DNA from: a virus
Taxonomy: Duplodnaviria > Caudoviricetes
Reading direction: 5' to 3' (one strand)
IMG/VR virus record: IMGVR_UViG_3300046103_001141
Location: 1-57,157 of that record
DNA: 57,157 nucleotides
Part shown: piece by piece, positions 3,337 through 20,869 of the stretch
Position numbering within the stretch: position 1 is the first letter of the stretch
Layout of the letters: every line of letters starts with the position of its first letter
The notes under the pieces: generated by a model
Databases searched by the model: none
The model's input: the letters and a program-made list of their open reading frames with translations, nothing else
Told to the model about the DNA's origin: nothing
Position numbers and translations under genes: made by a program

Positions 3337-3558
3337 TTAATCTTTCTTTGATACGAAAGAATACATTTCTTTAGCCTTCGCCATCAAATCATCTGTACTA
3401 TAAATTTTGTACGCTTCCTTAACTTCTTCTGCTGATTTATGGCCTTGATCATACAAATCATTCGCAAGTTGGATATTCATGGTCCATTGCTGATCCATAT
3501 AATCTTTTGCCATTTGTAACATTTCTGCGCGGATTTCAAAAGGATTTTTGTGTGTCAT
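3337..3558 (-). CDS. Small hypothetical phage protein (73 aa)
   Basis: AGGA SD before ATG; NPFEIRAEML...AKEMYSFV type I associate with aquatic T4-like phages. Confidence 0.75.
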   Translation of the reverse strand: MTHKNPFEIRAEMLQMAKDYMDQQWTMNIQLANDLYDQGHKSAEEVKEAYKIYSTDDLMAKAKEMYSFVSKKD

Positions 3559-3577
3559 TGTGTGTTCCTATCTAATT

Positions 3578-3883
3578 TTAATTATGTTCGCCGTTATTTT
3601 GTCGCCCGTTGTATCCATCAATTCTATCAAAAACTTTAGGCTTTCGCTTCACAGTCTCAAATGTGCCAACTGTAATAACAATTGCAGCGAGTAAAAGTGT
3701 ATGTGCGATTGCGTTGATCCCCCAAAAAGTGATACTACCAATGTACATAGAACATACAGATACCCACATCCATGCAAGAATTTGCATGATTAAATGGCGT
3801 ACTTGTAAATTTGGGATATTCTTTAAAGGATTGACGTTTGCATCCATAACACTATTCCAAGTGTCATTAATATATTCTTTCAT
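3578..3883 (-). CDS. Small membrane protein (101 aa, two hydrophobic segments)
   Basis: Start re-called at MKEYIN (GGAG SD); hydrophobic LIMQILAWMWVSVCSMYIG and AIAHTLLLAAIVITVGTF. Confidence 0.75.
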   Translation of the reverse strand: MKEYINDTWNSVMDANVNPLKNIPNLQVRHLIMQILAWMWVSVCSMYIGSITFWGINAIAHTLLLAAIVITVGTFETVKRKPKVFDRIDGYNGRQNNGEHN

Positions 3884-3912
3884 TATATTCTCCATAATTT
3901 GTGTGTGTGAAA

Positions 3913-3932
3913 GAAGGGCATTGATGCCCTTC
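3913..3932 (-). terminator. Rho-independent terminator ending the hsp20 operon
   Basis: GAAGGGCA-TCAA-TGCCCTTC followed by TTT on minus strand. Confidence 0.65.
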
Positions 3933-3938
3933 CTAATT

Positions 3939-4025
3939 TTAAGGTAAAACTCTAATCCAGATATATTCTGCAATCTGTCTATAAAGTTTCCATTTCATCA
4001 TAATATGGTATAAGATCAAATCCAC
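3939..4025 (-). CDS. Putative 28-aa micro-protein MDLILYHIMMKWKLYRQIAEYIWIRVLP
   Basis: Read by hand; GTG start overlaps end of preceding ORF and stop lies just before the terminator; weak SD. Confidence 0.4.
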   Translation of the reverse strand: MDLILYHIMMKWKLYRQIAEYIWIRVLP

Positions 4026-4180
4026 CCACGAAGATTTTCATTCATAGATGTTTTTTCCCACGCTTTCATTCTTCTTTCAAGGTCACATAAATCTTTTGCA
4101 TTTGCAAAATATTCATCTCTTTCTTCTATCATAGTTTTAGGTGTCGCACCCTTAAAGAAATTTTTGATCCAATGAATCAT
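4016..4180 (-). CDS. 54-aa small protein, DUF3563-like
   Basis: Read by hand (absent from ORF track): MIHWIKNFFKGATPKTMIEERDEYFANAKDLCDLERRMKAWE...; ERDEY-A-A-DL-DLERRM pattern; ATGA overlap with upstream stop. Confidence 0.7.
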   Translation of the reverse strand: MIHWIKNFFKGATPKTMIEERDEYFANAKDLCDLERRMKAWEKTSMNENLRGWI

Positions 4181-4389
4181 TTAAATTCCCCCAAAGTTCT
4201 TCTATTTAATTCAGATAATATCTCTGCATCCGACATATTTGGATATTCTATTCTAAAATATCTTACCAAATCTACATTTGCAGAACATTGTCTTGAGAAT
4301 TGAATACTTTTTCCTAAAGATAATAAAAGATCAAACAGTCCTGTTAGACCTTTCGTTAAGAAGTTGTGTGTTGTTAGTATGTGTTGCAT
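4177..4389 (-). CDS. 70-aa hypothetical protein
   Basis: Start re-called at MQHILT with GAGGA SD; overlaps the last 59 nt of hsp20. Confidence 0.7.
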   Translation of the reverse strand: MQHILTTHNFLTKGLTGLFDLLLSLGKSIQFSRQCSANVDLVRYFRIEYPNMSDAEILSELNRRTLGEFK

Positions 4390-4813
4390 TTGAGTTTTCC
4401 TCGTTTTTTCCAATTGAAATTTTACGAGGACGCATTTCTTCTGGGATAATATACTGCAACTCAATTGCCAGAATACCATCTTGAATATCTGCTCCGTTTA
4501 CTTGTACGTGTTCAGACAGCCTAAAAGTTCGTTTAAATTTCTTTGTTGAAATGCCACGATGGATAAATTCTCTACCTTTAGAAACGTGTTCACCAGTTAT
4601 TGTCAAAGTTCTATCTTTTACTTCAACATTGATTTCATCTTGTGAAAATCCAGCAATAGCAAGTTCAATCAAGTAATCTGATTCTCCTGCTTTAATAATA
4701 TTGTGTGGTGGATAGTGATCTTGAGCATGTTTAGCAGTGAACTCTAGTTCATTGAATAGATGGTCAAAACCCACGAAAGATGAACGTGGAAAAAGTGTTT
4801 GTAAGCCTGTCAT
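4331..4813 (-). CDS. hsp20: Small heat-shock protein Hsp20 (IbpA-like)
   Basis: VGFDHLF, YPPHNII, IELAIAGF, HRGIS..F.R.F.L, GILAIEL, PRKISI; start at MTGLQ with AAGGAG SD. Confidence 0.95.
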   Translation of the reverse strand: MTGLQTLFPRSSFVGFDHLFNELEFTAKHAQDHYPPHNIIKAGESDYLIELAIAGFSQDEINVEVKDRTLTITGEHVSKGREFIHRGISTKKFKRTFRLSEHVQVNGADIQDGILAIELQYIIPEEMRPRKISIGKNEENSNATHTNNTQLLNERSNRTV

Positions 4814-4900
4814 TGTTATCTCCTTTTGATCAAGCAAGATTGTAATGGGACCGATTGTTCGCATCCCCTTGGTTTGATTAGCATCAAGATGCTAACTCAT
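4811..4900 (-). promoter_or_regulatory. ROSE-like RNA thermometer in hsp20 5' UTR
   Basis: Three successive hairpins; the last is AUCUUGCUU-GAUCAA-AAGGAGAU, with UUGCU pairing the SD and a bulged G. Confidence 0.7.
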
Positions 4901-4904
4901 TAGT

Positions 4905-4932
4905 ATATATGTCTTTATTTTGTGATTTCAAG
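4905..4932 (-). promoter_or_regulatory. RpoH (sigma32)-like promoter for hsp20
   Basis: CTTG(AA)-N17-CATATAT, one mismatch from alphaproteobacterial CTTG-N17-CYTATNT. Confidence 0.55.
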
Positions 4933-4950
4933 AGGTTAGGTAAAAAAAAG

Positions 4951-5640
4951 TTAAGAAATTATGCTTTTTATTTTCCAAGGTGTAAAACATACTGTTCCTA
5001 GACTTACATAGTCTGCGCCCTTATCAAAATAAAATTCTGCATCATCCTTATTTGTAACCCCACCACCAGCGATTATAGTGACACTGGGATGTTTTCTCTT
5101 TATATATTCTATAATCCTTGTAGTATATGGTTTTAAAATTGTTCCACTTTGACCCCCATTTAAAGAGTACAAAGTGTTGCTTGCATGTATTTGATTATAC
5201 CCCAAATCTACTATCTTGTCTATGAGACATTCTGTCGCAGTAGGCGGTATTTTACATATACACCATTCTCTATTATTTTTAGGAAATAAATCAAAGCCGC
5301 GCAGATCAACCGCTCCTACATCTTTATCAAGGTTTGGACAACTTATATTAATTTCAACAGACAAATTTTTACCTACTATGCGGTCTAAATTTATCCAATC
5401 ATATTCGTCTATTGCGGCAAGGCTCAACACATCTGTAGAGTTTGTTCTTTTTAAACCCTCATATATTCCTGCATTTCGTAATCCAATTTTATTAATCCAT
5501 CCACCATTTTTATATCTAAGAGTTTTAAAAATTTGGGGAATAAGTCCTTCTCTTTTTTCAACGGTCCAACTTCCAGTTACGCTAATTGCGTTAGGAAGTT
5601 TTAAATAGTTTCCAAAAGGTGCTGATATAAAGTATTTCAT
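4951..5640 (-). CDS. pyrD: Dihydroorotate dehydrogenase, compact class 1-like
   Basis: INKIGLRNAG, EINISCPN (catalytic Cys loop), SNTL, GGQSG, IIAGGGV, GADYVSLGT FMN-barrel motifs. Confidence 0.88.
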   Translation of the reverse strand: MKYFISAPFGNYLKLPNAISVTGSWTVEKREGLIPQIFKTLRYKNGGWINKIGLRNAGIYEGLKRTNSTDVLSLAAIDEYDWINLDRIVGKNLSVEINISCPNLDKDVGAVDLRGFDLFPKNNREWCICKIPPTATECLIDKIVDLGYNQIHASNTLYSLNGGQSGTILKPYTTRIIEYIKRKHPSVTIIAGGGVTNKDDAEFYFDKGADYVSLGTVCFTPWKIKSIIS

Positions 5641-5675
5641 AATTTAATCCGAAAATGTTCTACGCCATTCCATAC

Positions 5676-6077
5676 TTACGCATATCTTATTATCTTATCT
5701 GGTGTTTTAAAATCTTTTTTACGCATAATCGTTTTCAGTACAACATCAAATTCATCTTTTCTTTGATCATACTTAACTGCTACTGGAATATTTAAATTAG
5801 TTTGCATATCTTTAATTACCGCTTCTGCGCCAGCCACACCTTTAAGCGACTTGCCTTGCCTTGCGTAAATCTTTTTTATAAATTCTGCCAACTCTTTCAT
5901 GGAAATGCAAGGGTTGTTTCTATCGTCTCCCATCCTATCACCAAAATGACGAGTGAATTTAAAATCAATCCCATACTTTTTGAACAATTTATCTACAATG
6001 GATTCAAATGCTTTGATTTGTTTCATACCCACTAAATCGCATTTATCTTCTGTTATAAAATTTTTAAATGTTTTCAT
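5676..6077 (-). CDS. Hypothetical protein with capsid-targeting-like leader (possible internal head protein)
   Basis: N-terminus MKTFKNFITE; FTRHFGDRM..RN and VVLKTIMRK motifs. Confidence 0.75.
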   Translation of the reverse strand: MKTFKNFITEDKCDLVGMKQIKAFESIVDKLFKKYGIDFKFTRHFGDRMGDDRNNPCISMKELAEFIKKIYARQGKSLKGVAGAEAVIKDMQTNLNIPVAVKYDQRKDEFDVVLKTIMRKKDFKTPDKIIRYA

Positions 6078-6343
6078 TTATCTCTCATCCTTGGCTCTTT
6101 ACGATTATAATGAACAGTTACACTTGATAAATTTTTGGGATTATTATTGAGTGGATCACCATCTTTGTGATGAATATCTCTTCCATCAAAAGGCTCTGCC
6201 TTACCCTCTTTTTCCATCTTTCTTCTAGCGCGTTTTCTAGCAGCGTTTCTTTCCATCTGTTCTGGAGTACCAAGATAGGTTTTTCGTTCTTTTTTGTAAT
6301 CTCTCTGATACTCATCAGTTATAAATGTCATAAACTTAATCAT
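6074..6343 (-). CDS. Small HNH-motif protein
   Basis: DIHHKDGDPLNNNPKNL...HYN; basic N-terminal helix; leader MIKFMTFITDE. Confidence 0.75.
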   Translation of the reverse strand: MIKFMTFITDEYQRDYKKERKTYLGTPEQMERNAARKRARRKMEKEGKAEPFDGRDIHHKDGDPLNNNPKNLSSVTVHYNRKEPRMRDK

Positions 6344-6573
6344 GATGCATTATCCCAAAAGGTTTTACTAATTTCACCCATAGAAACTGTAGACGTACCA
6401 GATGCTGAATTTACTGTTTTACGAACACTTGTATACACAGCATGACCATTTGTAGTTCTAATACCGTTAGTTTGTTTTAACCATAGAGGTCTTAATGGAC
6501 TATTAGCACCGGGATCAACTGGGGCATTGTCATATTGCCAACTAGAATTGTTTGTAATATTTACCCACGCCAT
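6340..6573 (-). CDS. Hypothetical 77-aa late protein
   Basis: AGGAG SD; late promoter 30 nt upstream; ATGA coupling to next ORF. Confidence 0.7.
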   Translation of the reverse strand: MAWVNITNNSSWQYDNAPVDPGANSPLRPLWLKQTNGIRTTNGHAVYTSVRKTVNSASGTSTVSMGEISKTFWDNAS

Positions 6574-6601
6574 GTTTCAGTCTCCTATCATTTGTTCTTA
6601 C

Positions 6602-6609
6602 TATTTATA
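6602..6609 (-). promoter_or_regulatory. T4-type late promoter
   Basis: TATAAATA on minus strand upstream of ORF 6573. Confidence 0.7.
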
Positions 6610-7162
6610 CATAAGGAGCGATTATGGTTTCTATATTCTTAATAATTTTCTTATGTGTAGGACTCAAATGTTTCCTATCTTTTTTTACAGCGTCTAGGGC
6701 CAACTTTGTATCACCAGCATATTTTCTTTGCCATTCTGGTTTCTGCTGCTTAATATCAGATACATTAGCAAGTCTATCAGCGAGTTTAATAACTAATGCC
6801 CAACTTGTCATGTTGACCATCTTATCTTTTATATACTCACCCTTACCACCTGCTGCTTCTAAATCATCTTTCTTAGTGGTTAGTTGATCTACTAAATTTG
6901 CAACCAATCCACCAAATTGCTTTACTAAGTCAGCATGTGATAAATCAGTATCTTCTATAGTATCATGCAGATATGCCGCTTGAACTAATGCAGATAAATT
7001 TTTTGATTTTGGTTTGAACTTAGCAACTATTTTAGCGACTTCTTTTGGATGAGCAATATATTCTCCTCCACTTTTTCTAAACTGTCCACTATGTGCTTTC
7101 GTTGCGGTTCTTAATGCACTAAGCGCACTTTCATTGATAAGATGTGATTTAAAACTCTGCAT
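6605..7162 (-). CDS. HD-domain small alarmone hydrolase (SpoT/Mesh1-like (p)ppGpp hydrolase)
   Basis: AHSGQFRKSGGEYIAHP..VA, AAYLHDTIEDT, FG..VA.LV..LT, IKLADRLAN; no synthetase domain. Confidence 0.9.
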   Translation of the reverse strand: MQSFKSHLINESALSALRTATKAHSGQFRKSGGEYIAHPKEVAKIVAKFKPKSKNLSALVQAAYLHDTIEDTDLSHADLVKQFGGLVANLVDQLTTKKDDLEAAGGKGEYIKDKMVNMTSWALVIKLADRLANVSDIKQQKPEWQRKYAGDTKLALDAVKKDRKHLSPTHKKIIKNIETIIAPYV

Positions 7163-7163
7163 T

Positions 7164-7583
7164 TTATTTTCTTCCTATATTATATTTGGGGCATAATTCC
7201 CAATTACTTTTTTCTTTAAAAGGAATAATCTTAATCTGTCGCAGAGGTGCTAAATTTTTAGCAACTGATTCATTTTGTATGGAGACTAGACCCCAATCAG
7301 ACATAAGTGTAGCGATAGTATTTCTACGGCCTATGTCACTTTCTTCTAAGTTTGATTTTTTGCCATCTAGCAAAAACAACTCTTTAAAATGGACTATAAA
7401 GTATCTACCTTGTTTATGAAGGATATGACAAGATTGAAATAGTTTATTTTCTTTCCTACTTGATACACCAATTCGTGTTAATGTTTCTCTTACTTTTAAG
7501 AAATCATCAGGTTCATTTAAAGTTATCTCCAACATATCAGTTGGTGACCAATTTACTATATTTGTTTCTTCATTCATTGTCAA
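7164..7583 (-). CDS. regA: Translational repressor RegA
   Basis: PDDFLKVRETLTRIG, LFQSCHILHKQGRYFIVHFKELF, WELCPKY. Confidence 0.97.
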   Translation of the reverse strand: MTMNEETNIVNWSPTDMLEITLNEPDDFLKVRETLTRIGVSSRKENKLFQSCHILHKQGRYFIVHFKELFLLDGKKSNLEESDIGRRNTIATLMSDWGLVSIQNESVAKNLAPLRQIKIIPFKEKSNWELCPKYNIGRK

Positions 7584-7618
7584 CTCACTTTTTTTGTTAT
7601 ATTCATTAATGACAATGG

Positions 7619-7626
7619 TATTTATA
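7619..7626 (-). promoter_or_regulatory. T4-type late promoter upstream of regA
   Basis: TATAAATA in the gp62-regA gap. Confidence 0.65.
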
Positions 7627-7631
7627 TAATT

Positions 7632-8009
7632 TTAATTTTTACCGCCCTTACGCAACTTAAATCTAATATGATCTAAATGCTCTTTGGGTATCAATTTTAG
7701 AACTTCTCTTGCTCTTTGATTTGAGTATCCATAATACTCCTTAATTGAATCTAAAGCATCCATTTTATCAGCCTTAGTCCATTTAGAAAACCTTTTTCGT
7801 TTCCTAACAATATTACGCATAAAATCATATTGTAATCTATCGTCAATATGATGATGCCTATTCATCTCATTTGCAGCAAGAATAGTGTCATTAAAATAGG
7901 ATAATGATCTATTAATGTAGTATGATTTATATGCTTTCTCAGTGATATCATCAACCATAATATCGTCTTTATTATGGTTGATTGAGTTTAAATAATCAAA
8001 GTGGTTCAT
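7632..8009 (-). CDS. gp62: Clamp loader small subunit
   Basis: FDYLNSIN, Y..Y.INRSLS, ANEMN, QYDF, RKRKRFSKW, EYYGYS; start re-called at MNHF (ATGA overlap). Confidence 0.92.
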   Translation of the reverse strand: MNHFDYLNSINHNKDDIMVDDITEKAYKSYYINRSLSYFNDTILAANEMNRHHHIDDRLQYDFMRNIVRKRKRFSKWTKADKMDALDSIKEYYGYSNQRAREVLKLIPKEHLDHIRFKLRKGGKN

Positions 8010-8617
8010 AGGTTTTGTATCACTGTTTGCATACGCATTACGTCCATTACACAATCATGCCGCGCATCATGTTTAACAAACTTTTCTGCACATCCTTCTG
8101 GAATATAATCATTCTTAACATCAGAACCCCAAAGCAAACCATCAAGAAATGACCTTGTATCGCGAACCATCCAAAATGGATAAGGAACTTTTTTACCAGT
8201 ATCATTTAAGATACCTTCAAAGAAAGGAATATCAAAGGTATTTCCGCGAGAAAACACAGTTTTTAGGTTATTGATATTTACATTCTTCACAAAAAAATTA
8301 TAGGTTTCACTAATATCTTTATCATCTTCTGATGGAACCATCACTGATGCTGTTGTTTCTTTGGGCTGTTTATTCCACCAATCAAGCGTAGATTTTGAAA
8401 TCTTACGATCATAAACTTCCACTTGTTTTTTAACATCATATTTAATACCAACACTACTATCTAAAAGTTCTTCATAACTGTATGGATTATTTGTAAATCT
8501 CGCCCTAGAGAAAGTAAGCAGACCTAAAGATAATACAACACCTCTGTTTACATCAACAGAAAGTGTTTCAAAGTCATATATCACACAATCATTTAATCCT
8601 TCATAAGCAACACTCAT
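8006..8617 (-). CDS. dexA: DEDD 3'-5' exonuclease, DexA-like
   Basis: IYDFETLS, TLDWW.KQ, SRGNTFDIP, PFWMVRDTRS, KHDARHDC. Confidence 0.8.
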   Translation of the reverse strand: MSVAYEGLNDCVIYDFETLSVDVNRGVVLSLGLLTFSRARFTNNPYSYEELLDSSVGIKYDVKKQVEVYDRKISKSTLDWWNKQPKETTASVMVPSEDDKDISETYNFFVKNVNINNLKTVFSRGNTFDIPFFEGILNDTGKKVPYPFWMVRDTRSFLDGLLWGSDVKNDYIPEGCAEKFVKHDARHDCVMDVMRMQTVIQNL

Positions 8618-9579
8618 TCTATGAACTCCACATTTGCCATTATTTCAGTTAAACATGCAACTGTATTGATTTCTAAATCAGCAACAAAAGCATTTTTATA
8701 TTGATATTCTGCGAGAATTAACACAACTTGAGGGATAGCGTGTGGTTTGATATGACTTGACATTTTATCATAAATTCCCCTAAAAATAGCAGAACTATCT
8801 GTGTCAATATTGTTTACTACCCAAGAACGCATTTTTTTAAAGTCTTTGTCTTTGATGAACTTTAAGAGAGAGTCGATTTCATTAATACCAGTATTATTAG
8901 AACTATTAGCACTAAGAATACCACCCACAGATCGTCTTTGTGTCTCATTTAAAACCCTTCTCCAATCAGGAGCATGTTTCATAATAATATTAACAAGGTC
9001 TTGATCTTCAAATTTTACATTCTCTTGTTCAAGAATATTTCTAGCGTGTTTAAGAAAATCCCCACAAAGACCAGCCATTTCTTTTTTAGTCGTATTAAAC
9101 TCATATACACCACATCTGGAATGTAAAGGTTCAATAATTCTATTCTTAAAATTGCATGTCATTATAAAGCGACAATTGTTGCTAAATTCTTCTATAAATC
9201 CACGCAAAGCAGGTTGAGTTGATTGTGGATTGAGGTAGTCTGCCTCATCTAAGATCACAACCTTATAACCACCTTGCAATGACACAGTAGAAGCAAATTG
9301 TTTGATCTTGCCACGCAAGGTATCAATATTACCATCTTCAGAACCATTAATTATTATGTAATCCAAACCTAGTGTATTACATAATGCTTTGGCAACTGTT
9401 GTTTTGCCGAGACCAGCGGTTCCAGTAAATAGCATGTTAGGAATTTCGGCGGTCTCAACGATTTTTTGTAGATTTTCCTTTAGTTCTTTTGGTAGGATAG
9501 TTCTTTCAATTTTCTGTGGGCGGTACTTCTCCACCCACAGAAATTCATTTGTATTACAGAAGTCACTCTGAGTATTCAT
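8614..9579 (-). CDS. gp44: Clamp loader AAA+ subunit
   Basis: LWVEKYRP, GTAGLGKTT, ILDEAD, PLHSRC. Confidence 0.97.
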   Translation of the reverse strand: MNTQSDFCNTNEFLWVEKYRPQKIERTILPKELKENLQKIVETAEIPNMLFTGTAGLGKTTVAKALCNTLGLDYIIINGSEDGNIDTLRGKIKQFASTVSLQGGYKVVILDEADYLNPQSTQPALRGFIEEFSNNCRFIMTCNFKNRIIEPLHSRCGVYEFNTTKKEMAGLCGDFLKHARNILEQENVKFEDQDLVNIIMKHAPDWRRVLNETQRRSVGGILSANSSNNTGINEIDSLLKFIKDKDFKKMRSWVVNNIDTDSSAIFRGIYDKMSSHIKPHAIPQVVLILAEYQYKNAFVADLEINTVACLTEIMANVEFIE

Positions 9580-9602
9580 TATATAAATCTATCCTTTAAT
9601 AT

Positions 9603-9821
9603 CTATTCTTCTGCTTGCTCTTGCTTATAGTTTTCAACAATCTGCACACCTTGAGTACACTGATCTCTCAACTGCCCAATCGTTGATAGTTCTTCACCAC
9701 GAAAACCACCGCGCTGAGTTACGGTATCAATTACTGCAATCGCGCTGCGAGAAATTTGATTCATAAGATCATATGCTTTTTTATGTGAATCTTCAACTTT
9801 TTTATTTTTATCGTCAGCCAT
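9603..9821 (-). CDS. Hypothetical 72-aa protein
   Basis: Fills the gp45-gp44 gap; helical, IDTVTQRGGFRGEEL motif. Confidence 0.75.
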   Translation of the reverse strand: MADDKNKKVEDSHKKAYDLMNQISRSAIAVIDTVTQRGGFRGEELSTIGQLRDQCTQGVQIVENYKQEQAEE

Positions 9822-9827
9822 TTTTAA

Positions 9828-10514
9828 TTACTCTCCATAAGTAGATGTTTTTTCAAGTGCAATCCAGTATTGCAATTTAGTTTCAGCATTAGTCAATTTT
9901 GAAATCAATTTTGATGAAATCTCCACATCATAATTACCAGTTAAAATTTTCAAGTTGTTAATGTTATACACAAACTTATAACTACTTGAGTTTTCTTCAA
10001 CAGGAATATCAATAGAAAAGGTATTCGCTGTAGAATTATCAGTTGTCGTTACCGTCAATTTCGCAAGACCATCATTTTCACTAGATTCAATGATCAATTC
10101 TGAGTGGCCTAGTGCTGATGCCGCTCGTTTTAGTTTATTTAATGTATCCATATCTAGGCGAAATTTAACATCACCTTCTGGCATCTTTACATCTTTTGTA
10201 GATGTTGTCAGCATGTCTGGATCAGAGAAAAAATACTTGATATTTGATCTACCAGTAGAATCTCCAATAGTCACATAATCTCCAGCGAAATCTAATACTG
10301 GCGTGTCAACCAAACCAAGTACTCCAAGAAATTCGCTTAAATCATAAATTCCAAACCTTTGAGGGAATGTTTGTTCAACTTCTGCTTTCGCCAGAATATT
10401 TTTTGCTTCTGAAATAGTTCTGATACTGCTACCATTTTCAATAACAATATTTGAATTAATAGATGCGAAGTTCTTCAATACTTGAATTGTCGCTTCGCTA
10501 ATCACTTCTCTCAT
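9828..10514 (-). CDS. gp45: Sliding clamp
   Basis: LKNFASINSNI, FGIYDLSEFL, GNYDVEIS, YWIALE. Confidence 0.96.
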   Translation of the reverse strand: MREVISEATIQVLKNFASINSNIVIENGSSIRTISEAKNILAKAEVEQTFPQRFGIYDLSEFLGVLGLVDTPVLDFAGDYVTIGDSTGRSNIKYFFSDPDMLTTSTKDVKMPEGDVKFRLDMDTLNKLKRAASALGHSELIIESSENDGLAKLTVTTTDNSTANTFSIDIPVEENSSSYKFVYNINNLKILTGNYDVEISSKLISKLTNAETKLQYWIALEKTSTYGE

Positions 10515-10543
10515 AATTTAATCTCCATTGTTTCATTTCTGTG

Positions 10544-10572
10544 ATTATAACACATTATAAATAATTAGTCAA
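10544..10572 (-). promoter_or_regulatory. Sigma70-type early promoter for gp45 operon
   Basis: TTGACT-N17-TATAAT with TGn extension. Confidence 0.8.
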
Positions 10573-10576
10573 CCTC

Positions 10577-12292
10577 TTACTTCATTCTACTAAAGTTTTT
10601 TTCTTTATAAAACTCCAATCTGTTTTCAAATTTCCCATCAAGAATTTCTCCCTTATGCGATATAACAAACACGTTAGTATCTTCACCAAGAGTATATAGT
10701 ATTTTCATAAGATTGTCAACACCGTCATGATCCAAAGATGAATCAAAAGTTTCGTCTAAAATTAGAAGATTGGTGGCGACAGAATTTTTCATCTTAGCAA
10801 TCATTCTCCAAGTGAACAAAAGTGCCAAATCAATGCGCTGTTTCTCACCTTCACTAAAAGAGTCGTATGAAAAGGCATCTCTATGCCTTGAGCGAATTGT
10901 CTCTTGAAAAGATTCATCTAGATCAAAGTGTACGAAAAAATCTAAGGTCTGCAAATATTTATTGACCAAATTATTAATTACAGGTAAATATTGTTTAATT
11001 ACTTTGGTTTTAATTCCAGTATCTTTAAGCATTTCACCCATGACGTTATTATAGGTATGTGATTCGTTTATCTCATACCTCGTATTGTTTGATGTTTCTT
11101 TTTTTTCTTCTAAATCTTTTAATTCAATATTCGCCTTTGACAAATCTCCAGTTTGATCAGAAAGTTGCTTTAGTTCATTTTGGTAAGATTGTACTTGTCT
11201 TTGGAACCGTGTGATTGTGTTATTGTTAGAAGATATAGTTGACATTTGTTGTCTGATCTTTTCTGCCAACTCAGTATACCGTTCAATAATCTGTTCCACA
11301 GCAGCCGACTCTTTAAGTCCATGGTCCATTGCTTGCTGAAATTCTTTTGCTTTGGTCTTTGCGGATTTAAGGTTCTCTGATCTAACACTTTCGTCAATAC
11401 TCTGGGTACAAGTTGGGCATGTTTCGTTTTGTTCATAAAACTTGCTCTCCTTGACCAATCTTTTGATTTTTGTTTGGAATTGGGCTTGATACTGGAGCAA
11501 CGCTTGCTTTTTATCATTCGCATGATCTAATTCCTCCTGCATAGTTTTCTGGTTTTCATCTATAAACTTTTGACATATTTCATTGTCGTTTTCCAGTTCT
11601 TCACGCTCAGAAATTAGATTAGATATATCAGTATTTCTTTTTTCTATAAAATCATCATTTAATGTGGTTATGTCATTAATATATTTCTTTTGAGTTTTTA
11701 TCTGGTTTTCAGTCAAATCTATGGTATATTTTACGTCCTTTAAATTTTCGCGTAATAAAGAAGTTTTTTCTTTTAAAATAGTATTCATTTTAGAAAAGAC
11801 GTTAATATCCAATAAGTCTTCAATAACATCCCTACGATGTTGTGCTGGCAGTTGCATAAATGGAATAAAAGAACTGCTACCTAATACTACAATCTGATGG
11901 AAAGATTTGTGATTTAATTTTAAAATATTTTGTTCTAATATTTTTTGATATTCTTTAGCATGAGATGATTGATCAATCATATTACCATTTGTCCAAATCT
12001 CAAAAAGATTTGGTTTTATTCCACGAACAATTTTAAAGTCTTTACTACCTATTGAAAATGCAACTTCAACTACACAATCTTTATTATTAATTGTATTAAC
12101 TAATTGAGGTTTATTTATACCACGATGAGGTTTACCAAATAGCCCAAATGATATGGCGTCCAGCATGGTTGATTTACCTGCGCCGTTTATTCCTACAATG
12201 AGAGTGGACTTAGAATTATTTAATTTTATTTCAGTCCAATTATCTCCAGTTGATAGGAAATTTTTATACTTCAACGATTTAAATATTATCAT
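10577..12292 (-). CDS. gp46: Rad50/SbcC-like recombination endonuclease subunit
   Basis: GINGAGKST, CPTC zinc hook, FSEGEK signature, LILDETFD, ISH. Confidence 0.97.
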   Translation of the reverse strand: MIIFKSLKYKNFLSTGDNWTEIKLNNSKSTLIVGINGAGKSTMLDAISFGLFGKPHRGINKPQLVNTINNKDCVVEVAFSIGSKDFKIVRGIKPNLFEIWTNGNMIDQSSHAKEYQKILEQNILKLNHKSFHQIVVLGSSSFIPFMQLPAQHRRDVIEDLLDINVFSKMNTILKEKTSLLRENLKDVKYTIDLTENQIKTQKKYINDITTLNDDFIEKRNTDISNLISEREELENDNEICQKFIDENQKTMQEELDHANDKKQALLQYQAQFQTKIKRLVKESKFYEQNETCPTCTQSIDESVRSENLKSAKTKAKEFQQAMDHGLKESAAVEQIIERYTELAEKIRQQMSTISSNNNTITRFQRQVQSYQNELKQLSDQTGDLSKANIELKDLEEKKETSNNTRYEINESHTYNNVMGEMLKDTGIKTKVIKQYLPVINNLVNKYLQTLDFFVHFDLDESFQETIRSRHRDAFSYDSFSEGEKQRIDLALLFTWRMIAKMKNSVATNLLILDETFDSSLDHDGVDNLMKILYTLGEDTNVFVISHKGEILDGKFENRLEFYKEKNFSRMK

Positions 12293-13350
12293 GCGATTTC
12301 AAGTGCCTGTGCTTCAGTCAATAAATTTCTCATTTCAATTTTAATTCTAGACTTATCTAATTCAGTGTCAACATTATCAACATAACTATCAAGAAGGGTG
12401 GTAGTATCCTCTACAGATACGCCCTCATCACCAACTCTTTCACCTATAAATTCGTCAAAATTCTCAGCAATTTTTAATTCATGTATTTTTCTATCTGATA
12501 TTTTATCACATAATTTATCAAATGTAAAGGGGTTAGATTTATTAATAACAACTAATTTAACAAATTTATTATCTAAATGGTCTACATTATAATTACTATA
12601 GTCTGTTTTTGTATCATCATAGATTATCTTTTCAAATAATGTGAATGGATTAACGATTGCTTCAATCTCGCGAGTTTCAGTATCTAAAACATGAAAATGT
12701 TTTGGATCATGTGCATCTGACCAGAAAAATTCCATCTGCGTACCCAGATACATAATGTTATCTTTTTGAGATTTGGTATGATAATGACCAGATAAAACTA
12801 ACTCAAACCTAGAGAACGCTTCTTTATCCATTCCATGTTTATTTTGAATTCCTCTCATCATATCAAAACCAGATAATTCTAAATGACCAGCAAGGAATGA
12901 TGCTTTGCAATTTTTAACAAAATTCATAGATTCTGAACAGTTTTCACTGGTGATCCATGGTAGTAACGCAACGTCAAGACCACCATAGTTCATTACTGTG
13001 GGTTTCATAACAATATGAATTTCATTCATATAATGACCCAATAGTTCTTTGAGTGAATTTAAATCATTGGTGTTCTTGAAATATGTGTCGTGATTACCCG
13101 GAATAATATCCATAGTCATGCCACGCTCTCGCATCGGGTTTAAAAAACTCTTGCGATTGTGTGTCAGTGCCTTAAAATTTATAAACTTGCGATGATCATA
13201 ATAATCTCCCAAGTGCAATATCTGCTTGATGTTATGATTGTCGCAATACGGAAATAAAATTTCTTTATAAAATTTTGCAGCATTATCTAAAAAAATATCA
13301 GAGGCATTTCTTATACCTGTGTGTGTATCGTTTAGTATCAATAGTTTCAT
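12289..13350 (-). CDS. gp47: Mre11/SbcD-like nuclease subunit
   Basis: DTH, GDYYD, GNHD, GHLE, SGHYH phosphoesterase motifs. Confidence 0.97.
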   Translation of the reverse strand: MKLLILNDTHTGIRNASDIFLDNAAKFYKEILFPYCDNHNIKQILHLGDYYDHRKFINFKALTHNRKSFLNPMRERGMTMDIIPGNHDTYFKNTNDLNSLKELLGHYMNEIHIVMKPTVMNYGGLDVALLPWITSENCSESMNFVKNCKASFLAGHLELSGFDMMRGIQNKHGMDKEAFSRFELVLSGHYHTKSQKDNIMYLGTQMEFFWSDAHDPKHFHVLDTETREIEAIVNPFTLFEKIIYDDTKTDYSNYNVDHLDNKFVKLVVINKSNPFTFDKLCDKISDRKIHELKIAENFDEFIGERVGDEGVSVEDTTTLLDSYVDNVDTELDKSRIKIEMRNLLTEAQALEIA

Positions 13351-13943
13351 TCTAAAAAGTCTTTCAAATCGGAATCAACATTAACTGTTCTTTTTTTCCT
13401 TTGTTGCCTTTCAGTCTTACCAAATTCTTTTATTTCTGTGTCATATTCTTTTACTTTGTCAATTCGGTCTTTAAGAACATCAATGAAATGTGTCGCGACA
13501 CCAGTTGATGCTTCGCCAGTTTCAGTCACAAGGAATGCTTCTATGCCAGATTGAGACATATATTTTTCTTTAATATCTTGTTGTTTTTTTTCTTTGGCAA
13601 TTCTTCTTAAAAATGCATACCAAATAATTTGAGTGAAATATGCAAAAGCATTTGGTTTACCACTTCTGGTCACGGCATTAATATTATAATTCTCTACTGC
13701 CTTTAAGCAATTCTCAACAGCATCCATAACCATTTCTTCACGATAAGTATACCTAATAAAATTAGATTTATGTGAAAGATTTTCAGCAATTCTTAAAAAG
13801 CATAATGCCAAATAATTTGGAACTACAGGTAATTCTTTGTCGTTATCTCTCGCTTCATTTATAGTCTTAACATATTCTACTATTTTCGCGGAAAATTCTT
13901 TGTTATCTACATAATGCGTACTTTTAGACTTTGCTTTTGGCAT
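13347..13943 (-). CDS. gp55: Late-transcription sigma factor
   Basis: HYVDNKEF, IAENLSHK.NF..YTYREEM..DA.ENC, NAFAYFTQI..AFLRRI.KEKKQ; ATG with AAGGAG SD. Confidence 0.96.
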   Translation of the reverse strand: MPKAKSKSTHYVDNKEFSAKIVEYVKTINEARDNDKELPVVPNYLALCFLRIAENLSHKSNFIRYTYREEMVMDAVENCLKAVENYNINAVTRSGKPNAFAYFTQIIWYAFLRRIAKEKKQQDIKEKYMSQSGIEAFLVTETGEASTGVATHFIDVLKDRIDKVKEYDTEIKEFGKTERQQRKKRTVNVDSDLKDFLE

Positions 13944-13969
13944 CAAATTCACTCCTTAATATTTCTACC

Positions 13970-13998
13970 ATTCTACCACAAATAGACGGTAATGTAAA
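13970..13998 (-). promoter_or_regulatory. Sigma70-type promoter for gp55-47-46
   Basis: TTTACA-N17-TAGAAT with TGG extension. Confidence 0.7.
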
Positions 13999-14021
13999 GC
14001 ATAATTATTTTATTTTAGGGG

Positions 14022-17519: not shown

Positions 17520-18869
17520 TTATGCACCCAGAATGTTGTCCACTCTGAAGATTCTGTAGTACTGGTTTGTTTGCTTTGTAGCAAGACCGTTTGCTGGTGT
17601 GCCACCGACAAATGGGTTTGATACCATACCGTAACGGGTTTTGAAACCGATTTTTGGCTGGAAATCATTCTCACCAACGGCGCGAACCATGGTCAGAGGT
17701 ACATATGGGCAATAGAAGATACCAGCATCATATGCATTTGTACCCTTATAACCTACAGTAATGTAGTCAATAGTGGCATATGGGTCAACATATACTTTTG
17801 TGCGTCCGTTAAGAACACCAGCAAATGTATTACCAGTGTCATCAACATTCAAGTTGGTTGACATTGCTGGAGCATAATCCAACATACCAGTTGCTGCCAA
17901 GCACGATGCAACATCACTAGATGTGATGATGAAGTTACCGCGACCTCTACGAGTTTCTTTGGCAATGTTATTGGCTTCACGCTCAATTTGAACCATGAGA
18001 CCTTTAAACTTCTCAACGCTCCAACGACCATCAGCATCTGTTTGAAGATCAAAAATACCATTCAACAAGGTGTTACCAGTGGATGCACCAGTTTTTGCTT
18101 GTGAGTTAATGGTACGAATTACTTCACGGTTGATTTCCGCAAGGATTTCAGTTGAAAGAATGTTGGCGAGTTCGCTTTCAGCGTCCAGACCGTGAATTGC
18201 TTTCAAATCCTGTGCGAGTTCAAGCGAATATTCTGCTTTCAATGCGCGTGTTTTGGCAGATACGGTTGCTTTTTCAATGGTGAAACCCATTTCAGCAAAT
18301 GCACTTGCACCAGATGTACCCAGAAGTTCGCCATTGGCGAGAGTCATTCCACTTGTACCAACAGCAGGATCATTACGCTGATCGTTAATAGTTGAGTCAG
18401 TGTTAGTATCTGTTACGCCAGAAAGACCAGAACCATCGTCTACCATGCTTGCAGCAGAATCGCCAGAGAAAGCGGTAACCGCTTCGCCAAAGAGTGCTTC
18501 ATTGTCAGCAGTTGCGCCACCGCGAGTTGTTTCATAGGTTGATTTCATTGCGAAAATCAGACCAGTTGGACCTGTCATTGGCTGAACACCACATACGTCA
18601 TATGCCATCATGTTTGGCATTGCGCGGCGAACCAGCGAAATAAGTACAGGGTTCCAGTTAGCAACATTACCAGTATTGTTTGCTGGTGCTGCTTCTGTCA
18701 GTTGACCGAAACCACCTTGTTGTGTTGCTTGCTCACGCAAAGCAATTTCTTGGTTTTCAAGCACAACAGCAGTAACTGCTTTGCGGTGCTTATCTTGGAT
18801 GGAACCAGCAGATTCTTCATTGAGAACCGGGGCCCACTTTTCAATTAGTTGATTGTAATTCATTTCCAT
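17520..18869 (-). CDS. gp23: Major capsid protein
   Basis: KWAPVL, LTE|A processing site, PVLISLVRRAMP, GVQPMTGPTGLIFAM, RALKAEYSLELAQDLKAIHGLDAE, FQPKIGFKTRYG. Confidence 0.99.
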   Translation of the reverse strand: MEMNYNQLIEKWAPVLNEESAGSIQDKHRKAVTAVVLENQEIALREQATQQGGFGQLTEAAPANNTGNVANWNPVLISLVRRAMPNMMAYDVCGVQPMTGPTGLIFAMKSTYETTRGGATADNEALFGEAVTAFSGDSAASMVDDGSGLSGVTDTNTDSTINDQRNDPAVGTSGMTLANGELLGTSGASAFAEMGFTIEKATVSAKTRALKAEYSLELAQDLKAIHGLDAESELANILSTEILAEINREVIRTINSQAKTGASTGNTLLNGIFDLQTDADGRWSVEKFKGLMVQIEREANNIAKETRRGRGNFIITSSDVASCLAATGMLDYAPAMSTNLNVDDTGNTFAGVLNGRTKVYVDPYATIDYITVGYKGTNAYDAGIFYCPYVPLTMVRAVGENDFQPKIGFKTRYGMVSNPFVGGTPANGLATKQTNQYYRIFRVDNILGA

Positions 18870-18881
18870 GATGGATACTCC

Positions 18882-19964
18882 TTAATTACTTGCTTTAATA
18901 GCAGCGACATACTTAGCCATGCTATCCGATACGTTTACATCTGTATCCGTATCTTCTTGGGTTTCTTCTGTAAGTGTTTCTTCTACGATAGCGGCAGGTG
19001 AAACTGCTGGTTTACCATTGAAGTAAGACTCTTTGATGGTGTCAACTTTAAATTTGAAATTATCTTCATTTTCAAATTCTACGCCTTCAACCAGTTTTTC
19101 CAATTTTGATGCTTCAGTACTAGCAAGATCATATGATGCTTCTACAATAATAGCAGAACGCTTCAGATTAGAAATTGTTTCGTTCATATCAACATTGGTT
19201 TGGGTTTGCTTATTCAAAAGTTCTTCTAATTCTAGAACTTCTTCAGCGAGTTGGTCTACTAAGTCAACTTTGGTTTCTGGAACTTCAATGTAAGATTCAG
19301 TAAACAAGTCTTTCAACTTACCCATGAAGCCTTCAGCGATTTCCGTGCGAATACCTTGCTCTACAGCAATACGGTTTTCTTCCATCCATTGTTCAACAAC
19401 GTAGTTTAAATAAGAATCAATCTTGTCTACAAGGTCACCCTTTGCTTCATTGATTGCTTCCTCAGTCTCTGTAGCGTATTGCTCTTCCAGAGATGTGACT
19501 TTTTCACCAAATGCCTCATCCAATTCTTGAACTCTAGTTGCAACTCTTGTAGTAAGTGCTGCCTCAAAAATTGTACTTGCTTTTGCTTTAAAGTCTTCTG
19601 ATAGAGATTCATCAGTAGAAATAAGGACTTCCAAATCAGCAGTAGAAGTATCTTCTACCATTGTTTCTTCTTCCATGTCTACTTCAATTTCTTCACCCAT
19701 CATTTTTTCATATGCTGCCTTGATTTCAGTCTTGGTTTTCATACCATTCATTTTATCAGTCATAGCATTAACCATACCCGCCTTAGTTTTAGGTGGGGAT
19801 GCTTTTTTAGTAACTTGAGCCGCTTTCTGAACAGATTGTACAGAATTATCTTCTGCACCTTCTGGATCATCTGAAAGTGATGCTTCAGTTACTTCTTCGT
19901 GAGATTCCACAATTTCGTTGTCATCATGGACCTCAAGTTCCTGTTCTTGTGTTTGATCAGTCAT
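18882..19964 (-). CDS. gp22: Prohead core scaffold
   Basis: Acidic coiled coil; LSEDFK.KA..IFEAA, YL.YVVE.WM.EN, IKESYF, M..Y. Confidence 0.95.
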   Translation of the reverse strand: MTDQTQEQELEVHDDNEIVESHEEVTEASLSDDPEGAEDNSVQSVQKAAQVTKKASPPKTKAGMVNAMTDKMNGMKTKTEIKAAYEKMMGEEIEVDMEEETMVEDTSTADLEVLISTDESLSEDFKAKASTIFEAALTTRVATRVQELDEAFGEKVTSLEEQYATETEEAINEAKGDLVDKIDSYLNYVVEQWMEENRIAVEQGIRTEIAEGFMGKLKDLFTESYIEVPETKVDLVDQLAEEVLELEELLNKQTQTNVDMNETISNLKRSAIIVEASYDLASTEASKLEKLVEGVEFENEDNFKFKVDTIKESYFNGKPAVSPAAIVEETLTEETQEDTDTDVNVSDSMAKYVAAIKASN

Positions 19965-19977
19965 ACTTGACTCCTTT

Positions 19978-20628
19978 TTATTTCAGCAACGAGAGGAAAT
20001 TTTCAAACCCACGAATTTGCGCTTCTTGCAAACCTTTTGATGGAGTTCTTTTTATTTCAGTCTCTATTTTTTCAATTTCTTGAGGTTTAATCATTCCATT
20101 ATCCCATACCCAGTCTACACCTTCCATTATACCATTAACAAAAGCGTTAGGTGCGCTTGGGTCTTGAACAATGTCAACGGTGTTAAGAATAAAATCATCC
20201 TTAACCTCCATTATTCCATTACGTTTCTCAAGACTTCCCATACCACGAGTCGAAACACCTAGTTGACACCCACCATCAAGTAAACCTTTTACAACTTTAC
20301 CCATTGGAGTATCTAATATAAGTGCTTTACCCATCACATCATTTCCCTCAAACTTGAGTTCCGTAATACGATGGGATACCTTATCCAAGTTAACAGTTGG
20401 ACCGTCTGGATGATTTAACTCACCTACAGCGCGTCCAGTTTTAACTTGTTCTTTTACATATTTGTTGATCGCATTTTCCATAATAGGCTTTGGATACATA
20501 CGACCATTTCTATTCTTCGCTTCTGCTTGTGCAAAAACGCCTTCTATTTGATAAGACTTTTCACCATTTTCCTTTGCTTCAGTGATTAAATCTAATGCAC
20601 CGTCACAGTACTCAGCAATTAGTTTCAT
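19978..20628 (-). CDS. gp21: Prohead protease
   Basis: IEGVF.QAE.KNRNGR.YP, GELNHP, GVSTRGMGSL, DIVQDPSAPNAFV. Confidence 0.97.
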   Translation of the reverse strand: MKLIAEYCDGALDLITEAKENGEKSYQIEGVFAQAEAKNRNGRMYPKPIMENAINKYVKEQVKTGRAVGELNHPDGPTVNLDKVSHRITELKFEGNDVMGKALILDTPMGKVVKGLLDGGCQLGVSTRGMGSLEKRNGIMEVKDDFILNTVDIVQDPSAPNAFVNGIMEGVDWVWDNGMIKPQEIEKIETEIKRTPSKGLQEAQIRGFENFLSLLK

Positions 20629-20631
20629 GTC

Positions 20632-20826
20632 TTATCCTTTATATTGCTTAATGAATTCTTTTGCCATGGTGATCGCTTCTTTTTCTGAACCATAATTGTC
20701 CAGATGCTCACCATCAATCTCAACTTTAAATTCTTTTCCTACTTTTTTAATATCAACCTTTGCATCACCTATTTTCATAGATTTTTCAATTAGTAGGTTT
20801 TCTTTTAATTCTTTAAAAGTTTTCAT
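20632..20826 (-). CDS. Small prohead core/internal protein (gp68 position)
   Basis: MKTFKELKENLLIE leader; late promoter; immediately upstream of gp21. Confidence 0.7.
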   Translation of the reverse strand: MKTFKELKENLLIEKSMKIGDAKVDIKKVGKEFKVEIDGEHLDNYGSEKEAITMAKEFIKQYKG

Positions 20827-20861: not shown

Positions 20862-20869
20862 TATTTATA
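20862..20869 (-). promoter_or_regulatory. T4-type late promoter
   Basis: TATAAATA. Confidence 0.75.

Follow-up and report, generated by a model that had tools for sequence, protein, structure and literature searches.

Why should three neighbouring genes of a marine phage, whose products are otherwise unrelated, begin with nearly the same ten residues? The question is raised by positions 5,676 to 7,162 of IMG/VR record IMGVR_UViG_3300046103_001141, a viral contig of 57,157 nucleotides that we analyzed over its whole length and refer to as the window. The window is a portion of the genome of a marine T4-like myovirus; in the head genes it shares about 71% nucleotide identity with phage C48C1 and Pelagibacter phage HTVC008M, the closest named records. 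An earlier interpretation made from the letters of the DNA (the sequence-only reading) took the shared N-termini for capsid-targeting leaders of the type found on the internal proteins (IPs) of T4, and proposed an undescribed system of effectors packed into the capsid and injected together with the DNA. Our analysis supports this proposal in part, mainly with regard to mechanism. With a probability of roughly 75%, the three cassette proteins belong to the internal proteins that phages of the T4 type target to the capsid, and they represent new enzyme cargo. The claim of an undescribed system went too far, as the mechanism is the known T4 route of capsid targeting sequence (CTS) and gp21 protease. 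What is new is the types of cargo, the wider occurrence of the tag, which reaches marine T4-like phages, and the fit with virion-associated cyanophage enzymes that had been left unexplained.

All called genes of the window are on the minus strand, as are the leaders, cleavage sites and promoter-like motifs whose coordinates are given below. The three proteins start as originally described, and the open reading frame (ORF) translations agree. A tag of about 10 residues, M-x-x-F-x-x-(F/H)-(I/L)-x(1-2)-E, heads a 133-residue protein (MKTFKNFITE, 6048..6077), an 89-residue HNH protein (MIKFMTFITDE, 6311..6343) and a 185-residue HD protein (MQSFKSHLINE, 11 codons, 7130..7162); the fourth ORF of the cassette, of 77 residues (6340-6573), is without a leader. 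In the T4 record, IPII and IPIII begin MKTYQEFIAE/A (the slash marks the cut), while IPI begins MKTFKEF... and has a propeptide ending ITE/A. As summarized in a 2022 review of Black's work, the first 10 residues of IPIII are enough for packaging, residues 4 and 7 being the main determinants of targeting and residues 8 and 10 those of processing; an Asp at position 10 stops processing but not targeting (PMC9026906). The same review suggests that the CTS may let T4-like phages package various proteins (PMC9026906). The window leaders conserve positions 4, 7, 8 and 10, the very positions mapped for targeting and processing in that literature, and match IPII and IPIII at these residues, which bears out the T4-like character assigned to them earlier. 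Propeptides of T4-type internal proteins measure 10-19 residues, and their targeting positions correspond in all three window proteins to F4 together with F7 or H7. The I/L-x-E motif at the end of the leader is present in the 133-residue protein (I8-T9-E10, with a cut predicted after E10) and, shifted by one residue, in the HD protein (I9-N10-E11, with a predicted gp21 site after E11). The HNH leader keeps F4, F7 and I8 with Asp at position 10 and Glu at 11, and has no canonical motif; because of this Asp, the HNH protein may stay uncut.

For scanning the window we used the leader pattern ^M..[FY]..[FYHW][ILMV].{1,2}E, built on the mapped T4 positions, over the 57-kb contig that is the entire record of the source phage. 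The scan, of a kind proposed in the sequence-only reading, matches 3 of the 47 gene starts, precisely the three cassette genes, and none of 339 internal methionines. The same three genes are the only matches among 145 six-frame ORFs of the window. At the internal-methionine rate of related loci (3/4234), the probability of at least three matches among 47 starts is 5.6e-6, a value that is indicative only, since the pattern was set post hoc.

Conservation was assessed in the 120 best homologs each of the 133-residue and HD proteins, and in 31 homologs of the HNH protein. The leader proved to be retained in all three families to different extents. It is found in strict form in 109 of 120 homologs of the 133-residue protein, 95 of them at residue 1 and 14 at a methionine within the first 25 residues, the latter suggesting mis-called starts. 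Among HD homologs, 41 of 120 carry the leader by a relaxed pattern and 73 of 120 by a general one (aromatic at positions 4 and 7, then [ILMV]-x-E within 8 residues); the linker from leader to domain varies in length, and the leaderless homologs are mostly more distant or longer fused forms. In the HNH family, 13 of 31 members have the leader and the other 18 start MRNYKKER. The tagged HNH relatives P0246-P0253 have a canonical ...E/RDYKKER junction, which places the MRNYKKER start of the leaderless subfamily directly after the predicted cut. No tag is found on the HD homologs of BcepSauron and two Vibrio phages, which are not T4-like and whose proteins start directly at the domain, nor on the 133-residue-domain homologs of Klebsiella phage Kp4865-1 and Flavobacterium phage immuto, also not T4-like. 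Since leaderless homologs begin where the tag ends, the tag appears to be a detachable module that ends at the predicted protease site. It persists across homologs down to about 50% identity.

The tag extends well beyond these three families. In 80 IMG/VR loci around relatives of the 133-residue protein (768,740 nucleotides), the strict tag, counted where at least 40 residues follow, occurs 121 times on the gene strand versus once on the opposite strand, and at 110 of 1194 ORF N-termini versus 3 of 4134 internal methionines (odds ratio 140, p = 7e-69). Once stripped of the tag, these proteins group into 27 clusters by BLAST; one cluster is the query family, and two or more seem spurious (one opposite-strand, one a hydrophobic 76-residue ORF). 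Of 24 cluster representatives scanned, six have a Pfam match (DUF6267, DUF5824, PolyA_pol with PolyA_pol_RNAbd, CTP_transf_like, HNH_3 and a weak AAA_16) and 18 have no significant one. The tag thus heads about two dozen unrelated families in 80 related contigs and is a portable module. Its codons vary: TTT, TAT, TTC and CAT are used at position 7, and TTA, ATA, ATT, CTT and ATG at position 8. The search expression fixes the residue classes at these two positions, where codon diversity alone is therefore informative, and this diversity suggests that the peptide, and not the RNA, is under constraint.

A degenerate form of the tag at the DNA level was used to scan whole records of named phages. 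Paraglaciecola Antarctic GD virus 1 (PANV1) has 11 hits, all on the forward strand, with 7 clustered beside its homolog of the 133-residue protein; no virion mass spectrometry is reported in the accessible portion of the paper on this phage, whose 11 tags are strict ones. There are 6 hits in C48C1 and 2 in Melnitz. T4 itself has 4 hits: ipII, ipIII, gene 61.1 and one that is non-coding. T4 gene 61.1 (NC_000866 18966-19130; L111:1167-1331) encodes an uncharacterised 54-residue protein starting MKTFKEFIKE, a perfect CTS-type tag, and small tagged relatives of it are found in C48C1 and in IMG/VR locus L065.

The strongest support for the capsid-targeting reading comes from the association of the tag with published virion proteomes, for which we used a pattern that had been shaped on T4 and the window beforehand and was left unchanged afterwards. 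The whole genome of cyanophage S-CREM2 was scanned for the strict degenerate tag with an ATG, GTG or TTG start, yielding 7 hits, 4 of which coincide with annotated gene starts: the S-adenosylmethionine (SAM) hydrolase gp6 (MKDFDSFLEE), the APH-like kinase gp14 (GTG start, (V)KRFDAFLTE), ORF136 (MQTFSMFFSE) and the cytidylyltransferase gp154 (MKNFSSFLTE). The remaining three are a methionine in frame within nrdA, a 16-codon ORF on the antisense strand and a hit interrupted by an in-frame stop. According to the published proteome, 52 of the 221 S-CREM2 ORFs were detected in virions (PMC10665884, Table 3), and the four tagged annotated genes are all among them (hypergeometric p = 0.0028). In the stretch from gp5 to gp17, the untagged gp5, gp7-gp11 and gp16 are undetected in that table. 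Among the detected proteins of this stretch, gp13 (MKDLHSFLTE) and gp12 (...RFASFMAE...) have tag-like N-termini, gp15 (MNFSEFNES...) shows only a shortened resemblance and gp17 has no tag. In gp12, annotated as ‘Cas9-like’ (L142, S-CREM2 3500-14000), the RFASFMAE stretch lies about 19-26 residues into the annotated N-terminus, and the true start may be further downstream. The authors describe such proteins as ‘virion-associated’ and report kinases and cytidyltransferases as frequent in cyanophage virions (PMC10665884). S-SM1 has a single real hit, the T4-GC190 cytidylyltransferase (MKKFSAFLNE), which has been reported in purified virions (Sullivan et al. 2010, PMC3037559). Tagged members of the same cytidylyltransferase family are Syn9 gp184 and P-SSM2_194.

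The machinery that would act on such a tag is encoded in the window. A gp21-type prohead protease (19978..20628; Pfam Peptidase_S77, 3.9e-42) is 40% identical to T4 gp21, which cuts after Glu in I/LxE and has the catalytic residues H85 and S140 (PMC12991175); these align with H73 and S126 of the window protein, which is the enzyme predicted to remove the leaders. The gp22 scaffolding core protein (18882..19964; Pfam T4_CASP, 7.9e-62) contains 14 I/L-x-E sites, and the head module also encodes a gp67-like protein. The LTE/A maturation site of gp23, already pointed out in the sequence-only reading, lies at residues 57-59 (18693..18701), aligns with the T4 gp23 site and has L57, T58 and E59 invariant across T4, C48C1 and the window. 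Between the gp67-like gene and gp21 lies a gene for a 64-residue protein (20632..20826), in the gp68 position, which starts MKTFKELKENLLIE as claimed and carries a variant leader (MKTFKELKE/N...LIE/K). This variant is shorter, with L7-K8-E9 followed by L12-I13-E14, and 11 of the 26 matches found start M..[FY]..[LIVM].E. The corresponding C48C1 gene between the gp67-like gene and gp21, CDS0012 (L001:5989-6243; annotated as 46 residues), has an in-frame upstream GTG. A start there gives MRTFKELRE..., which matches the window 64-residue protein, and the annotated start is therefore probably too short. By analogy with T4, the tag would bind a protein to the scaffolding core during head assembly through residues 4 and 7, the T4 determinants; the shell would close around the core; the gp21-type protease would cut after the Glu of I/L-x-E and free the mature protein inside the head; and, in the infection that follows, DNA and protein would exit the head together.

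What the tag would deliver differs between the three genes. The HD protein (6605..7162) matches Pfam HD_4 at 1.6e-15 (57.6 bits, cut-off 27.2). Searched against the PDB, it matches Rel/SpoT hydrolase domains at 2.6e-17 to 6e-13 and MESH1 at 1e-10 to 1e-11; small alarmone hydrolases match at 1e-6 to 1e-5, poorer than the hydrolase domains of the long Rel/SpoT proteins (1e-17 to 1e-13). Every PDB alignment begins at residue 14-18. In the alignment to the Rel hydrolase domain, the protein keeps HP...LHDTIEDT, with the His...HD...ED metal and catalytic motifs. On the evidence of these matches and the intact LHDTIEDT, it is likely a single-domain hydrolase of the RelA/SpoT type and a plausible candidate (p)ppGpp hydrolase.

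The 89-residue protein (6074..6343) matches HNH_3 over residues 47-80 (1.1e-7, 31.8 bits, cut-off 24.8), as well as PHROG 4590 and HNH families; by its sequence it is a minimal HNH_3 protein and a putative nuclease. The leaderless subfamily of its relatives (P0254-P0270) has a C-terminal extension, ...MGSVTGPHIAGTGDD...KKKK, that resembles the mature part of a tagged 58-residue protein of C48C1 (L112:13660-13836) at 47% identity over 34 residues, in a BLAST comparison against six sequences only, too few for the E-value to carry meaning.

The 133-residue protein (5676..6077) consists of the leader and a compact conserved domain that matches PHROG 23027 at 7e-37 (profile positions 481-601 of 602). 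It has 645 homologs, and its domain has 19 invariant residues, including H44, R48, R53, N54, K115, R119 and K120. No Pfam family was assigned to it, no PDB sequence scored below E = 0.1 in a profile search, and the ESM Atlas returned unnamed viral clusters only. An AlphaFold2 model has a mean predicted local distance difference test (pLDDT) score of 87.9. With this model, the best Foldseek E-value is 0.19, and VIA-align places RelE, ParE, HigB, YafQ and T4 RegB on top at Z scores of 4.4-5.7, which are under the noise level of the tool (about 8). The weak RelE/RegB-like fold signal of the model makes an RNase role only a lead. Pfam and PHROG scans of the three cassette proteins gave HD_4, HNH_3 and PHROG 23027/14518 and no internal-virion-protein family; the proteins would thus be IP-like in working and not homologs of the T4 IPs.

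The cassette varies between fixed borders, the regA gene and a DHO_dh-like gene. The translational repressor regA (7164..7583; Pfam Translat_reg, 1.8e-42) is the upstream border conserved in the gene order of relatives, and the DHO_dh-like TIM-barrel protein of 229 residues (4951-5640; Pfam 8.9e-13) is the downstream one. Contigs L008-L010, which are 97-99% identical to the window, contain a further two tagged genes, placed after the HD gene and before the 77-residue ORF and encoding a 115-residue protein and a PolyA_pol-type nucleotidyltransferase of 402-407 residues (L008:3570-5151 versus window 6574-6604). Both genes are also present in L013, L015 and L016, where the flanking genes are 93-98% identical to those of the window. 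Their absence from the window reflects a recent gain or loss. The 77-residue ORF, which has no Pfam or PHROG match, takes a 190-residue form in L008-L010. Other relatives have further cassette insertions, tagged or untagged, between the same borders. The 133-residue domain is also found fused behind tagged cytidylyltransferases in 7 of 38 loci examined (L043, L054, L055, L061, L062, L081 and L086), and at the C-terminus of Lys/Glu-rich proteins of 600-1050 residues (L026, L029, L041), including phiM12 gp159 (L002:1058-2866), an untagged protein of 602 residues. The variability of the cassette is as expected for packaged cargo.

Could the tag be a genuine protein module that serves another purpose? 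It might attach these proteins to a different complex, of the phage or of the host, or hold enzymes in an inactive state until they are cleaved by gp21 in the cytoplasm, with no packaging or injection. Conservation and modularity would suit a protein-level function of any kind, most of the cargo is enzymatic, with some enzymes longer than 400 residues, and T4 gp21 is reported to be able to cleave non-virion targets (PMC12991175). We nevertheless consider another role unlikely, given that the tag matches the T4 CTS at the functionally mapped residues, that a variant of it sits on a protein within the head-assembly module, and that tagged annotated genes are represented in the published purified-virion data of S-CREM2 (4/4) and S-SM1 (1/1).

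An explanation at the nucleotide level, in which the peptide has no role and the likeness reflects a translation-initiation or RegA-operator region or a homology patch for cassette exchange, is much less probable still. It draws on the A/U-rich region (ATG AAA ... TTT AAA), the adjoining regA gene, and the gain and loss of whole genes here among near-identical contigs. The information content of the tag is however periodic by codon, with the x positions and most third bases free; the residue classes at positions 7 and 8 are kept via different codons, and the tag persists across families and phages without nucleotide similarity. Exchange through homology at the tag is in any case compatible with capsid targeting, and the two can coexist. 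That AT-rich codon usage at gene starts (MK.F...) produced the likeness by chance is hardly credible, even though Lys at position 2 is common in AT-rich phages and the patterns are short and partly fitted after the data were seen: the rates at internal methionines (0/339 in the window, 3/4234 in related loci) compare with 3/47 at gene starts, the strand ratio is 121 to 1, and the tag is conserved in homologs down to about 50% identity.

Several points weigh against the capsid-targeting reading itself. Packaging in this phage is a prediction from its genes, and folded enzyme cargo of 185 to more than 400 residues would need to be ejected. The link between tag and proteome is correlative and covers five genes in two phages, and the S-CREM2 authors warn that abundant proteins may co-purify with virions (PMC10665884). 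The patterns were refined after data were seen. The HD leader exceeds the T4 type by one residue, and the HNH leader ends I-T-D-E, which leaves Asp at position 10 and a site at E11 with Thr at P3. In the HD family, 47 of 120 homologs fit neither pattern and only 41 fit the relaxed one. Strict matches are absent from S-PM2 and phiM12, and the single hit in HTVC008M is a 30-codon ORF that is not gene-like, which indicates that the tag is not universal among T4-like phages.

Expression timing adds to these objections. The sequence-only reading had placed the tagged genes behind late promoters at 7619, 6602 and 20862. The T4 late-promoter-like motif TATAAATA is indeed present at all three locations (7619..7626, 6602..6609 and 20862-20869), and its role as support for late expression did not hold up. 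It is not enriched in the window (15 occurrences versus 10.9 +/- 3.5 expected from shuffles), and in related loci it lies upstream of 13 of 129 leader genes versus 72 of 1065 others (p = 0.20). The two motifs of the cassette precede regA and the 77-residue ORF, and none stands directly before the three tagged genes. The one at 7619 lies 42 nucleotides ahead of the ATG of regA and could serve as promoter for regA and the HD gene; the one at 6602, 29 nucleotides upstream of the 77-residue ORF, which is the first gene behind it, could drive this ORF and the genes of the HNH and 133-residue proteins. Early read-through is possible because all genes point in one direction. The motif does show a bias in strand and position, with 14 of the 15 occurrences on the gene strand and 10 of those 14 located 19-65 nucleotides before a start codon. 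Between positions 4800 and 8200, sigma-70 promoter-like sites occur at the chance level (17 versus 16.7 expected), and all four terminator-like sites found (4/4) are on the non-coding strand.

We return to the reading of the cassette proteins as capsid-targeted internal proteins. For this phage, we infer their packaging, cleavage and injection, the timing of their expression and the role of the cargo in the host. A wider reading, to which we give slightly less than even odds as a whole, holds that the T4 CTS is an ancient, portable address label across marine T4-like phages, both Kyanoviridae and their heterotroph-infecting relatives, and marks a large, fast-changing set of injected enzymes. 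In this phage they would form a kit that removes (p)ppGpp in a starved host and acts on host nucleic acids before phage gene expression. The set would comprise the alarmone hydrolase, nucleotidyltransferases, SAM hydrolase, kinases, the HNH protein and the RelE/RegB-like domain, and a genome sequence would then suffice to tell what any such phage carries.

In the sea, T4-like phages rank with the most abundant viruses. If the tag is a loading signal, packaged proteins would become predictable from sequence alone in uncultured phages, and pre-made enzymes may act in the first minutes of infection; in a host short of nutrients, the likely alarmone hydrolase could then reset the stringent response. 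The T4 targeting signal would also prove to have been conserved over a very large evolutionary distance. Enzymes that the authors leave unexplained in the accessible text on cyanophage virion proteomes (PMC10665884, PMC3037559) would be explained as well.

Pfam and PHROG scans of the window as a whole identified gp23, gp22, the gp21 prohead protease (Peptidase_S77), a clamp-loader subunit (Phage_clamp_A), regA, Hsp20 and the DHO_dh-like protein. Beyond the cassette, positions 8006-8617 contain a gene for an Rv2179c-like 3'-5' exoribonuclease between the clamp-loader genes gp44 and gp62, overlapping the longest ORF call for gp62. The structural region has three giant ORFs, at 22922-28555 (1877 residues), 45000-51602 (2200 residues) and 51603-57119 (more than 1838 residues), the last of which continues beyond the end of the contig.

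We found no paper linking the tag to cyanophage virion enzymes, and earlier notes of CTS-like ORFs in relatives of T4 may exist in subscription journals. The literature found for ‘capsid targeting sequence’ concerns T4, P1, P22 or SPN3US-type systems, ‘capsid targeting’ combined with ‘cyanophage’ retrieved only a T4 review, and the 2010 review of T4-related genomes by Petrov leaves internal proteins and the CTS unmentioned. Among known systems, the T4 proteins IPI, IPII and IPIII offer a close parallel. In both cases a leader some 10 residues long, aromatic at positions 4 and 7, aliphatic at position 8 and with Glu at position 10, precedes the mature part at the N-terminus; the phage encodes a gp21-type protease; and the tagged genes are neighbours in a variable locus, with mature parts mutually unrelated. 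Where T4 has small basic IPs, the window encodes an HD hydrolase, an HNH protein and a conserved domain as mature parts. Packaging is experimental in T4 and inferred here, the HD tag is longer, and the HNH tag has Asp10. T4 Alt resembles the cassette proteins as an enzyme carried in the head whose short propeptide is removed at an I-x-E site (ITE-6), as described in PMC5694885. It differs in being an ADP-ribosyltransferase with a 6-residue propeptide of another sequence and a C-terminal cut as well, and, compared by its published description only, has no sequence relation to the window proteins. The ejection proteins of the giant phages phiKZ and SPN3US are likewise described as head-internal and targeted by N-terminal propeptides, which a gp21-related protease cuts after Glu (PMC5694885); the propeptides reported there are mostly longer than 100 residues, with no sequence similarity to the window tag. 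Like small alarmone hydrolases and MESH1, the HD protein has a single HD_4 domain of about 180 residues with the HD...ED motif and no synthetase domain; unlike them, it bears a capsid-type tag at its N-terminus. The cyanophage virion-associated enzymes differ from the window cargo in family, and no targeting signal is offered for them in the accessible text of PMC10665884 and PMC3037559. S-CREM2 gp6, gp14 and gp154 and S-SM1 T4-GC190 are nonetheless of the same lineage (Kyanoviridae), carry the same tag and are enzymes, and according to these reports they were found by mass spectrometry in purified virions.

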